Origin: Deltaproteobacteria bacterium UBA4427
GTDB lineage: Bacteria > Myxococcota_A > UBA9160 > UBA4427
Assembly (NCBI GenBank): GCA_002390675.1
Contig: DGPZ01000195.1
Coordinates: forward strand, 67,095 to 131,094
Reading direction: 5' to 3'
DNA: 64,000 nt
Shown: piece by piece, positions 26,923 to 50,541 of the stretch
Layout of the letters: every line of letters starts with the position of its first letter
How positions within the stretch are numbered: the first letter of the stretch is position 1
The notes under the pieces: generated by a model
The model's database searches: none
What the model was told of the DNA's origin: nothing
What the model saw: only the letters and a program-made list of their open reading frames with translations
Made by a program: the position numbers and the translations under genes

Positions 26923-27630
26923 ATGATTCGATTCACCAAGGCCCTCGCGCTGGCCGCGACCCTCTTGGCCATACCGTCAATGGCATCCGCCCTAGGGATT
27001 GAACTGGTCGGCACAAATGGAAGTGGCGGTAGTGCTACTCTGGCCCCCGGCGGTACGATCACGTTCGACCTTCGCATGACCTTCACCGGAACGGAGCCCC
27101 AGATCTTCGGCCTCTCCGCCGACGTTACGGGTATGGACTTGGCGGACGCGACCGGCGTGCGCGACTTTGGCCTTCAACTTGCGGGCGGTACTTCCGTCAG
27201 TGAATCTCTTGGAACCGACCCGGCACCCGGAATTGTCCCCGTGCAAGGGGCGATCCAAAACAACAATGGTACGTCTCCAGTTGAACGATACAGCATTAAC
27301 CATCTCAGTCCGCAGGCCTATACAGTCAACATGTTCGACGGCATAACGGCCAGCGGCGCGGATGGCGACGGCTCCACCGACTACGGTATCGGTGGGACCT
27401 ACGTAACGGGTGGCGACATCCACTTTCAGGTCACGCTCCAAAACGTAGGTAACGGCTCCGCCGCTTCATCCCTCGCGAACCTGCAGTTCTCGCTTCTCGC
27501 TTTGGACTTCCAGGGCGGCACGATCGCCGCAACTGGTGACACCTTCGCGCTGACGGTCATCCCGGAGCCGGGCACCGCCCTGCTCATGGGTCTCGGTCTC
27601 GCTGGCCTGGCCACGGTTCGCCGACGCTAG
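26923..27630 (+). CDS. PEP-CTERM sorting-domain secreted protein
   Basis: N-terminal signal peptide. C terminus VIPEPGTALLMGLGLAGLATVRRR is a PEP motif plus TM plus basic tail. Confidence 0.85.
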   Translation: MIRFTKALALAATLLAIPSMASALGIELVGTNGSGGSATLAPGGTITFDLRMTFTGTEPQIFGLSADVTGMDLADATGVRDFGLQLAGGTSVSESLGTDPAPGIVPVQGAIQNNNGTSPVERYSINHLSPQAYTVNMFDGITASGADGDGSTDYGIGGTYVTGGDIHFQVTLQNVGNGSAASSLANLQFSLLALDFQGGTIAATGDTFALTVIPEPGTALLMGLGLAGLATVRRR

Positions 27631-27712
27631 ACCTGACTGGCACGGCAGACGGGCACGGGATCCATTTCGGCTTCTGTAACTGTAATAGAGCCCGAGCCCG
27701 TCAAAAAACGAA

Positions 27713-27742
27713 GGGCCGCTTTCTCGCAAGAGAAAGCGGCCC
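27713..27742. terminator. bidirectional intrinsic terminator hairpin
   Basis: GGGCCGCTTTCTC-GCAA-GAGAAAGCGGCCC forms a 13-bp perfect stem. It is followed by TTTCGCGTTT on the + strand and TTCGTTTTTT on the - strand. It lies between the convergent PEP-CTERM and UGSC genes. Confidence 0.75.
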
Positions 27743-27835
27743 TTTCGCGTTTGGGGCTTCGGGCAGTCCGGGGCGCTGCCACGGGAGTTCCGGGGCTGCT
27801 CAGGAATTTTGGTTTTGGGCGGGGGCGAGGGCGAA

Positions 27836-28363
27836 CTAACGCAGCTGTTCGAGGATCGCGTCCAATGCCGCGTCTGCCCATGAATCCAGGGTTGCGCCGG
27901 GTGTGCCGCCGATCGGGTGCGGGACGATGATTCGGCGCGCATCAGGAAAGAGTAGCTCCCTCGCCATCTGATCTGCGAGATCGCGAAAGGCTTCGCTCGC
28001 GACGACGACGGTGGCTACGCCTCGGGCTTCAAGGGATTTGGTGTCGTGGAGACTCCACGACGTGCAGCTCCCTCAATCCGCGGTACCCGTAAGGACGACC
28101 TCGACTTCTTTGGCGAGGCGATCGATTAGCTCGGTCTCACAGGGCGTGGCGGCGGTCTGCTTGCGGAAGCAGCCAACGTAAATTCCATCCGTCTTCTTGG
28201 CGAGCTCTACGCCCATCCTGCCTAATAGGTGATCCGCGCCTGCCTTCCCGTTGTCGAGGACGCCAATACGAAGACCTACGAGCTCTTTGATAGAGGTTCG
28301 CGGCGTGCATTCGAGGAGTGCGTCCGTATGTCCCTCGGGAGAGTAGATCAAGGTTGACGACAT
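27836..28363 (-). CDS. UGSC-motif selenoprotein candidate (175 aa, Sec at codon 97 encoded by in-frame TGA 28075..28073)
   Basis: Track ORF 28073..28489 stops at a TGA. Codon-by-codon translation shows the frame stays open 78 more codons to TAG 27838..27836. The context is VVLTGTAD-U-GSCTSWSLHD. A stem-loop lies 11 nt downstream, and a paralog at 49978..50541 has the TGA at the same aligned position. ATG 28363 (MSSTLIYSPEGH) is the preferred start. Confidence 0.8.
28043..28061 (-). promoter_or_regulatory. SECIS-like stem-loop downstream of UGA (locus 1)
   Basis: The mRNA reads UGA-GGGAGCUGCAC-GUCGUGGA-GUC-UCCACGAC: an 8-bp stem and a GU-containing apical loop, starting 11 nt after the UGA. 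Confidence 0.55.
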
Positions 28364-49919: not shown

Positions 49920-49977
49920 GGCTCTTCCTATATTTTATTTCGAGCTCGGAGCAATGGTAGACGGAGTTTCTGGAGGT

Positions 49978-50541
49978 TCAGCTCGTCAGACGGGCACGCA
50001 CTTTGGGAGCAACCTCTCGTGCCAGATCGCGAATTTCATCTTGATTCCAGATGGCTGTCGGAATGGCCGGGTAGTCGATCAGGATGAACTCAAAATCAGG
50101 CACTCCCGATAGTCGAGCCATCGCTTGGGCAGAGCCCTCGACGGCTTTGTGGATGATGGCGGCGGTCGGAATACCCGCCCACTCGAGCTCGATCGCGTCG
50201 CGCAAACTGCGCGCAGAGCAGCTGCCTCAACCCCCGAAGCCGGCGATTGCCAGCGAGGTCTCCGAGGTGAGCCGAGCCCAATCCGGTCCCTCTGGCGCGA
50301 CGGAGACACTCGGCTTCAGCACACGCACCGCGGCGAGGGTGTCGTCTGCGCTCGTGAGCTCCCCGTACACGGCGTCGAGGAAGGACTTGGATTCACCGAG
50401 TCCATTGGCCACGAGGCCGAGTACATGCCCCGAAAGCGAAGCGACGCGGGCGGGAAGCGCCCGGTCGTCTTTGCGCTCGAGGGGGCCGCTCGTAGGATCG
50501 AGGGCGATCAGTGTTTTTTCGTCCATGGCTAATTCCTTCAT
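49978..50541 (-). CDS. UGSC-motif selenoprotein candidate, second copy (in-frame TGA 50229..50227)
   Basis: Track ORFs 50227..50541 and 49978..50205 are the same frame separated only by a TGA. Joined, they read ...SLAIAGFGG-U-GSCSARSLRDAIELEW... A stem-loop lies 13 nt after the UGA. ATG 50526 (AAGGAA RBS) may be the true start. Confidence 0.8.
50199..50213 (-). promoter_or_regulatory. SECIS-like stem-loop downstream of UGA (locus 2)
   Basis: The mRNA reads UGA-GGCAGCUGCUCUG-CGCGCA-GUU-UGCGCG: a 6-bp GC-rich stem and a GU-containing triloop. Confidence 0.5.

Follow-up and report, generated by a model that had tools for sequence, protein, structure and literature searches.

SelB-mediated recoding of UGA codons as selenocysteine (Sec), directed by SECIS elements in the mRNA, is a textbook mechanism. 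A close reference point for the hairpins described here is the minimal SECIS of Escherichia coli fdhF, which consists of a 17-nt upper stem-loop spanning nt 15-31 (Liu et al., 1998; PMC8659212). This stem-loop begins 11 nt past the UGA and exposes in its loop G23 and U24, which are contacted by SelB, and the E. coli SelB also requires a bulged U17 in the 5' strand of the stem (PMC8659212). More generally, the bacterial SECIS consensus comprises a loop of 3-9 nt and an upper stem of 4-16 bp (bSECISearch, Zhang and Gladyshev, 2005; PMC13188914), with a G as first or second loop base and G or U as the usual next base, a distance of 16-37 nt between the UGA and the loop, and an energy of -7.5 kcal/mol or lower (PMC13188914).

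Among the proteins decoded in this manner, the UGSC-containing protein has been recognised as a major aquatic selenoprotein family since 2007-2008 (PMC2398784, PMC13188914). Zhang and Gladyshev reported in 2008 that the family is abundant in aquatic samples, and the selenoprotein candidates of their study had strong SECIS elements (PMC2398784). In the literature searched, no publication was found that describes the UGSC SECIS in terms of structure or covariation.

The window considered here, i.e., the whole stretch of 64,000 nucleotides that was analysed, belongs to contig C42 of a 4.86-Mb, 208-contig Myxococcota MAG assembly, the close relatives of which are labelled Myxococcota or Deltaproteobacteria MAGs. 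Comparison of sequences indicates that two hairpins in this window are very probably genuine bacterial SECIS elements, located inside the coding regions of two paralogous UGSC selenoprotein genes. The case is well supported but ordinary, adding new members to an established family that uses a familiar mechanism, and it leaves our knowledge of selenocysteine insertion unchanged. What is modestly new is the quantitative contrast in codon use between Sec and Cys forms, the conservation of the nucleotide sequence across phyla, and the coexistence of two architectures.

The two UGSC genes and the hairpins that follow their UGA codons

The features of both loci are collected in Table 1. With the UGA read as U, gene 1 yields a translation of 175 residues with the motif D-U-G-S-C, and gene 2 one of 189 residues with the motif G-U-G-S-C. 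Both match the Pfam UGSC family PF24696 far above its cut-off of 25 bits, gene 1 with 134.8 bits over residues 8-174 and gene 2 with 131 bits over residues 14-186, and in each case the UGA lies inside the match. As in the UGSC family described earlier (PMC2398784), the U-G-S-C motif is present, the domain match runs through the UGA, Sec forms occur alongside Cys forms, and the genes are found in uncultured bacteria assembled from environmental metagenomes. Unlike the earlier members, these new ones stem from a Myxococcota MAG, and they differ in their fit to the NCBIfam model NF041046, 'UGSC family (seleno)protein': gene 1 scores 125 bits, exactly the 125-bit equivalog cut-off, and gene 2 falls under it (86.3 vs 125 bits). 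Standard gene calling truncates two genes in the window, and four in the genome, which should be annotated as full-length selenoproteins.

Table 1. Features of the two UGSC loci, with positions numbered along the window
Feature	Position	Strand	Details
UGSC-family predicted selenoprotein gene 1	27836..28363	(-)	ATG 28363-28361; in-frame UGA 28075-28073; TAG 27838-27836; 175 codons
Predicted Sec-coding UGA, gene 1	28073..28075	(-)	U of U-G-S-C; the column holds a Cys codon in Cys-form homologues
Probable SECIS hairpin 1	28043..28061	(-)	After UGA and 11-nt spacer GGGAGCUGCAC: 8-bp stem GUCGUGGA (28061-28054)/UCCACGAC (28050-28043), loop GUC (28053-28051)
Intrinsic-terminator-like hairpin and T-run	27703..27744	(-)	15 bp, 9 G-C pairs; ~92 nt past the TAG of gene 1
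UGSC-family predicted selenoprotein gene 2	49970..50541	(-)	ATG 50541; in-frame UGA 50229-50227; terminal TGA 49972-49970; 189 codons
Predicted Sec-coding UGA, gene 2	50227..50229	(-)	
Probable SECIS hairpin 2	50199..50213	(-)	After UGA and 13-nt spacer GGCAGCUGCUCUG: 6-bp stem CGCGCA (50213-50208)/UGCGCG (50204-50199), loop GUU (50207-50205)

Given its position, the terminator-like hairpin downstream of gene 1 likely marks a transcript end beyond the full read-through frame, not at the UGA. Convergent with gene 1, positions 26923-27630 of the plus strand encode a 235-aa protein that carries a PEP-CTERM-like sorting signal (IPEPGTALLMGLGLAGLATVRRR) at its end.

The preliminary description had given the sequences and coordinates of both UGA-hairpin pairs, which were all confirmed, on the minus strand, and it had placed the hairpins 11-13 nt past the UGA with GU in the apical loop. 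This placement is correct, and the two loops were found in addition to share the G23/U24 register. In a codon alignment, the loops of hairpin 1, hairpin 2 and the hairpin of a third paralogue, on contig C132, all occupy nt 23-25 counted from the U of the UGA. The loop thus starts 19 nt past the UGA at both loci (11 + 8 nt at locus 1, 13 + 6 nt at locus 2), and the spacers of 11 and 13 nt result from stem length alone, since locus 2 is without the two outermost pairs.

Comparison with fdhF, the sequence of which was verified for the alignment, reveals a similar layout. The stem of locus 1 starts at nt 15, i.e., 11 nt past the UGA as in fdhF, and that of locus 2 at nt 17, and the apical loops of both loci display G23 and U24. 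On the 3' side, the arm of locus 2 opens with U26 G27 C28, as does that of fdhF, and the arm of locus 1 with U26 C27 C28. In contrast with fdhF, there is no bulged U17 at either locus or in any subfamily consensus, the helix being uninterrupted over 6-8 bp, and the loop is a 3-nt GUN rather than the 4-nt GGUC. The cognate SelB differs from that of E. coli, as the host is a Myxococcota. With respect to the bacterial consensus, both hairpins fall within the ranges for loop and stem size, loop G, distance and energy, and nothing contradicts the model, the UGSC hairpins standing at the short, simple end of the range (triloop, no bulge, no conserved lower helix). The resemblance to SECIS elements that had been proposed from the spacing and the GU loop extends to both the E. 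coli minimal element and the bacterial consensus (PMC8659212, PMC13188914).

The folding energies tell less. Hairpin 1 amounts to -12.6 kcal/mol on its own, is part of the MFE structure (z = -2.75 for 61 nt), and has a pair probability of ~0.99. Hairpin 2 amounts to -9.1 kcal/mol on its own, and the preliminary description, which anticipated both hairpins in the MFE folds, was right only in part at this locus: hairpin 2 appears in the 41-, 45- and 80-nt MFE folds and is absent from the 61-nt fold, with a pair probability of 0.39-0.9 depending on the folding window. Locus 2 gains no stability over shuffled sequence (z = +1.6 to +1.8), nor is its MFE better than those of synonymous recodings (P = 0.52). 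Measured against dinucleotide shuffles and synonymous recodings, folding energy is significant at locus 1 only, and register-specific geometry was therefore used as the test statistic; folding energy alone is weak evidence for the hairpins.

Geometry is more discriminating. When the same peptides were recoded with the UGSC family's own codon usage, at least 6 bp in register together with a GU loop arose in ~1% of the synonymous recodings of either peptide. A scan of both strands of the 4.86-Mb genome detected the hairpin geometry at 38 TGA sites, only four of which have an open frame extending 40 codons or more to either side, namely three UGSC genes and one junk frame. The extra in-frame match, on contig C85, was rejected because its frame is Arg-rich and non-coding.

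Covariation and synonymous constraint among the homologues

The core sample consisted of 118 TGA-bearing and 14 Cys-codon homologues, with DNA from 60 related genomes. A further 80 homologues of the C132 type came from MAGs of Myxococcota and Acidimicrobiia, and 39 TGA and 40 Cys forms were added from Acidimicrobiia; a phylum-wide search of 250 genomes gave no new Cys forms, which were furnished by the Acidimicrobiia sample. More than 200 homologues have one TGA at exactly the same column, with the frame open downstream, and although such counts represent related sequences rather than independent trials, the pattern recurs in two phyla and several subfamilies.

The alignment of the hairpin region is gap-free. 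In the 118 TGA forms, 89.9% of cells are paired, compared with 80.5% after shuffling (a proportion as high as the real one arose in none of 500 shuffles) and 16-56% when the register is slid, and the covariation score is 0.254 vs 0.090, but these counts are inflated by shared ancestry, few independent events standing behind many cells. Changes on both sides affect three pairs of the alignment: 33-45 (G-C, A-U or C-G), 34-44 (U-A, C-G, G-U, U-G or A-U) and 36-42 (C-G or G-C). The compensatory changes that the preliminary description proposed to look for in orthologues are thus present, and the hairpin is kept at the same offset in TGA-bearing orthologues and paralogues. When run on the 118 sequences without a supplied structure, RNAalifold returned exactly the GU-loop hairpin and nothing else, and it recovered this hairpin when the four GU-loop subfamilies were treated one by one. 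In the same 118 sequences it detected no conserved lower helix including the UGA, such as the one in the complete E. coli element; where lower pairings do occur, at locus 1 and in the locus 2-like group, they are lineage-specific.

The manner in which the hairpin is maintained depends on the subfamily. In 28 locus 2-like orthologues, which come from two phyla, nt 18 and nt 30 form a G-C pair in 11 cases, A-U in 8 and C-G in 9, and they are never unpaired. Both are third codon positions, within Ala GCN and Arg CGN respectively, so that all changes, on both sides, are synonymous. Hairpin 1, for its part, is identical in 15/15 locus 1-like orthologues, the flanks of which vary freely at synonymous sites. 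A similar picture emerges from 42 C132-like genes, in which minor codons are absent (0%) from positions +4 to +11, except for His (7%), and mostly reach 12-60% in the flanking codons, and the same pattern is found in the locus 1-like genes. In the larger set of C132-type homologues (L150-L229; ~61-80% protein identity to the query), the hairpin GUCGUGCA-GUG-UGCACGAC is nucleotide-identical in 74 of the 80 sequences, across Myxococcota and Acidimicrobiia, and one homologue has a double synonymous compensatory change, GUCAUGCA/UGCAUGAC. Such identity across phyla would reflect either a very strict constraint imposed by SelB or movement of the gene between phyla.

Pairing also bears on the protein. 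As nt 19 stands opposite nt 29 in the stem, the residue at +6 changes together with that at +9, W or C being matched by H, R by R, and G or S by L. Similarly, through the pair nt 21-27, the synonymous form of the Leu/Val codon at +8 follows the last base of codon +6: it is C-ending when Trp (UGG) precedes and G-ending when codon +6 has C as its last base.

Selenocysteine machinery and competing explanations

The UGA of the UGSC genes aligns with Cys in homologues, and the genome possesses selA, selB, selC and selD. The selA match scores 510 bits, and the selB match, with 269.8 bits, is above cut-off and includes the SECIS-binding winged-helix domains SelB-wing_2 and SelB-wing_3; the tRNA-SeC has the anticodon TCA. 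The gene for SelB lies directly downstream of serS on the same strand, with the listed frames overlapping (L001, G000:C88:39903-43682). The two may be linked, since SerS, the seryl-tRNA synthetase, charges tRNA-Sec. The selD match (257.8 bits) is located in a 786-codon open frame that has no in-frame stop (L231, G000:C6:31176-35087). Its product is not a Sec-containing SelD and may be a fusion protein, for example of the Ndh-SelD type; Ndh-SelD fusions have reportedly been encountered in ocean metagenomes. As potential clients of this machinery, the genome harbors four UGSC paralogues with one in-frame TGA in each, and targeted searches for other Sec client genes found none, the 15 molybdopterin-domain matches all being without an in-frame stop.

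From these elements, SelB binding and Sec insertion can be inferred at both genes. As the ribosome arrives at the in-frame UGA, the hairpin located 11-13 nt downstream would still be folded at the mRNA entrance, its small apical loop displaying G23 and U24. SelB, carrying Sec-tRNA(Sec) and GTP, would bind the loop and the stem through its C-terminal winged-helix domains, and a tRNA with the anticodon UCA would thereby be delivered to the A site. The UGA would then be read as selenocysteine, and translation would run for 78-85 further codons to the true stop.

A conserved structure does not by itself name the factor that reads it, and the hairpins might play another role at the RNA level, such as slowing the ribosome, protecting the mRNA, or promoting read-through of the UGA independently of SelB. 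The absence of the E. coli U17 bulge would fit with such a role, as would the lack of an Rfam SECIS match: a scan with Rfam 15 gave 0 matches at gathering score in the window and no SECIS family at E<=10 for the four paralogous loci, a result that is uninformative inasmuch as Rfam appears to be without a model for the UGSC SECIS. A role of this kind is improbable, however, given that the constraint is present only with a TGA codon (see below), that G and U occupy exactly the positions contacted by SelB in E. coli, and that the genome has a complete Sec pathway, SelB winged-helix domains included, for which the targeted searches revealed no other obvious client genes.

It is even less likely that the hairpins, rather than being SECIS elements, are a by-product of coding constraint, whereby a conserved peptide (T-S-x-S-x-H/R-D), encoded in a GC-rich genome by self-complementary codons, would generate a functionless RNA structure. 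The peptide that follows U-G-S-C is indeed conserved, GC-rich coding sequence is about equally stable under synonymous recoding, and some Cys forms with the same peptide retain 7-8 stem pairs, by chance or ancestry. Nevertheless, Sec and Cys forms behave very differently. Of 221 distinct TGA homologues from two phyla, 196 have at least 6 bp with a GU loop in register; of 54 Cys-codon homologues, none does. The GU of the loop is supplied by the Ser codon at +7, which is AGT in 198/198 Sec forms vs 1/37 Cys forms, and AGT represents 7% of the Ser codons elsewhere in UGSC genes. The peptide GSCTSWSVHD is encoded by one single 21-nt string in 19 Sec genes, whereas 19 Cys genes with the identical peptide use 10 synonymous versions. 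Thus, the synonymous sites are frozen in Sec forms and vary freely in Cys forms with the same peptide, a contrast by which the by-product explanation is already largely refuted. Preservation of pairing by double synonymous compensatory changes and the small proportion of recodings that reproduce the geometry also speak against it. On these comparative grounds, covariation, frozen synonymous sites and the use of the rare AGT codon show the hairpins to be under selection at the RNA level, and the Sec/Cys comparison shows this selection to be tied to the TGA rather than to a Cys codon. More broadly, the codon comparison between matched Sec and Cys forms provides an unusually clean computational demonstration of RNA-level selection on a hairpin within a coding region.

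Finally, that the UGAs are true stops, with split or truncated genes and with hairpins serving as terminators or attenuators, is scarcely credible: standard ORF calling does end at the TGA, and a stem-loop does follow that codon, but the Pfam domain runs ~80 residues beyond the UGA in both genes, the homologues keep an open frame beyond their single shared TGA, no T-run is found behind the hairpins, and a separate strong terminator lies past the full-length frame of locus 1.

A longer stem-loop in the fourth paralogue

The GU-loop hairpin is not the sole solution in the family, as ~11% of the TGA forms, comprising a C44-like group and two Acidimicrobiia sequences, are without it. The two UGAs of the window had been described as followed by the same architecture, and this is true of three of the genome's four UGSC paralogues; the exception is the paralogue on contig C44 (G000:C44 ~56454; L020:1657-1734, minus strand), which has a longer stem-loop. 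Neither this gene nor its 14 orthologues have a GU-loop hairpin, and these C44-like genes (L020 and L120-L135) have Thr ACG in place of Ser AGT. Their stem-loop consists of a 16-bp interrupted stem that starts 6 nt past the UGA, with a GCG, GCA or ACA loop 30 nt from the UGA. Pairing is observed in 97.5% of cells, compared with 35-58% in slid registers, and three pairs are compensated. With the C44-like stem-loop, two SECIS-like architectures coexist in one family and even in a single genome.

Both types of stem-loop occur in the C44-like subfamily. The Acidimicrobiia Sec forms with the sequence GLGN-U-GSC (L305, L309, L311 and L312) belong to this subfamily by blastp, with 50-54% identity, and they carry the standard G23/U24 hairpin, which suggests that the SECIS architecture has been switched within the subfamily. 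The two other sequences without the GU-loop hairpin, L293 and L294, are Acidimicrobiia TGA forms of the type VGATAD-U-GACTSWLMRD, and no pairing was found for them in the standard register.

Taken together with the conservation described above, these observations raise the tentative possibility, for which the case falls somewhat short of even, that the UGSC hairpin constitutes a distinct SECIS class missing from Rfam. This class would be defined by a bulge-free helix of 6-8 bp and a GUN triloop locked at G23/U24; it would be frozen across Myxococcota and Acidimicrobiia and would dictate which residues can be combined at +6 and +9, and it would have been replaced, in one subfamily and in this genome, by the 16-bp stem-loop with its loop 30 nt from the UGA. 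If so, a single SelB would accept two architectures. The alignment could in any event seed a covariance model for the UGSC SECIS, absent from Rfam, in what is among the most abundant aquatic selenoprotein families.

One further pairing was noted in the C44-like genes. Columns 6-10 and 16-20 of alignment A3 could form a 5-bp hairpin, CCUCG-GGAAU-UGAGG, that would sequester the UGA itself. It is present in 15/15 sequences with no covariation, and may thus merely reflect the conserved G-L-G-N-U-G peptide.
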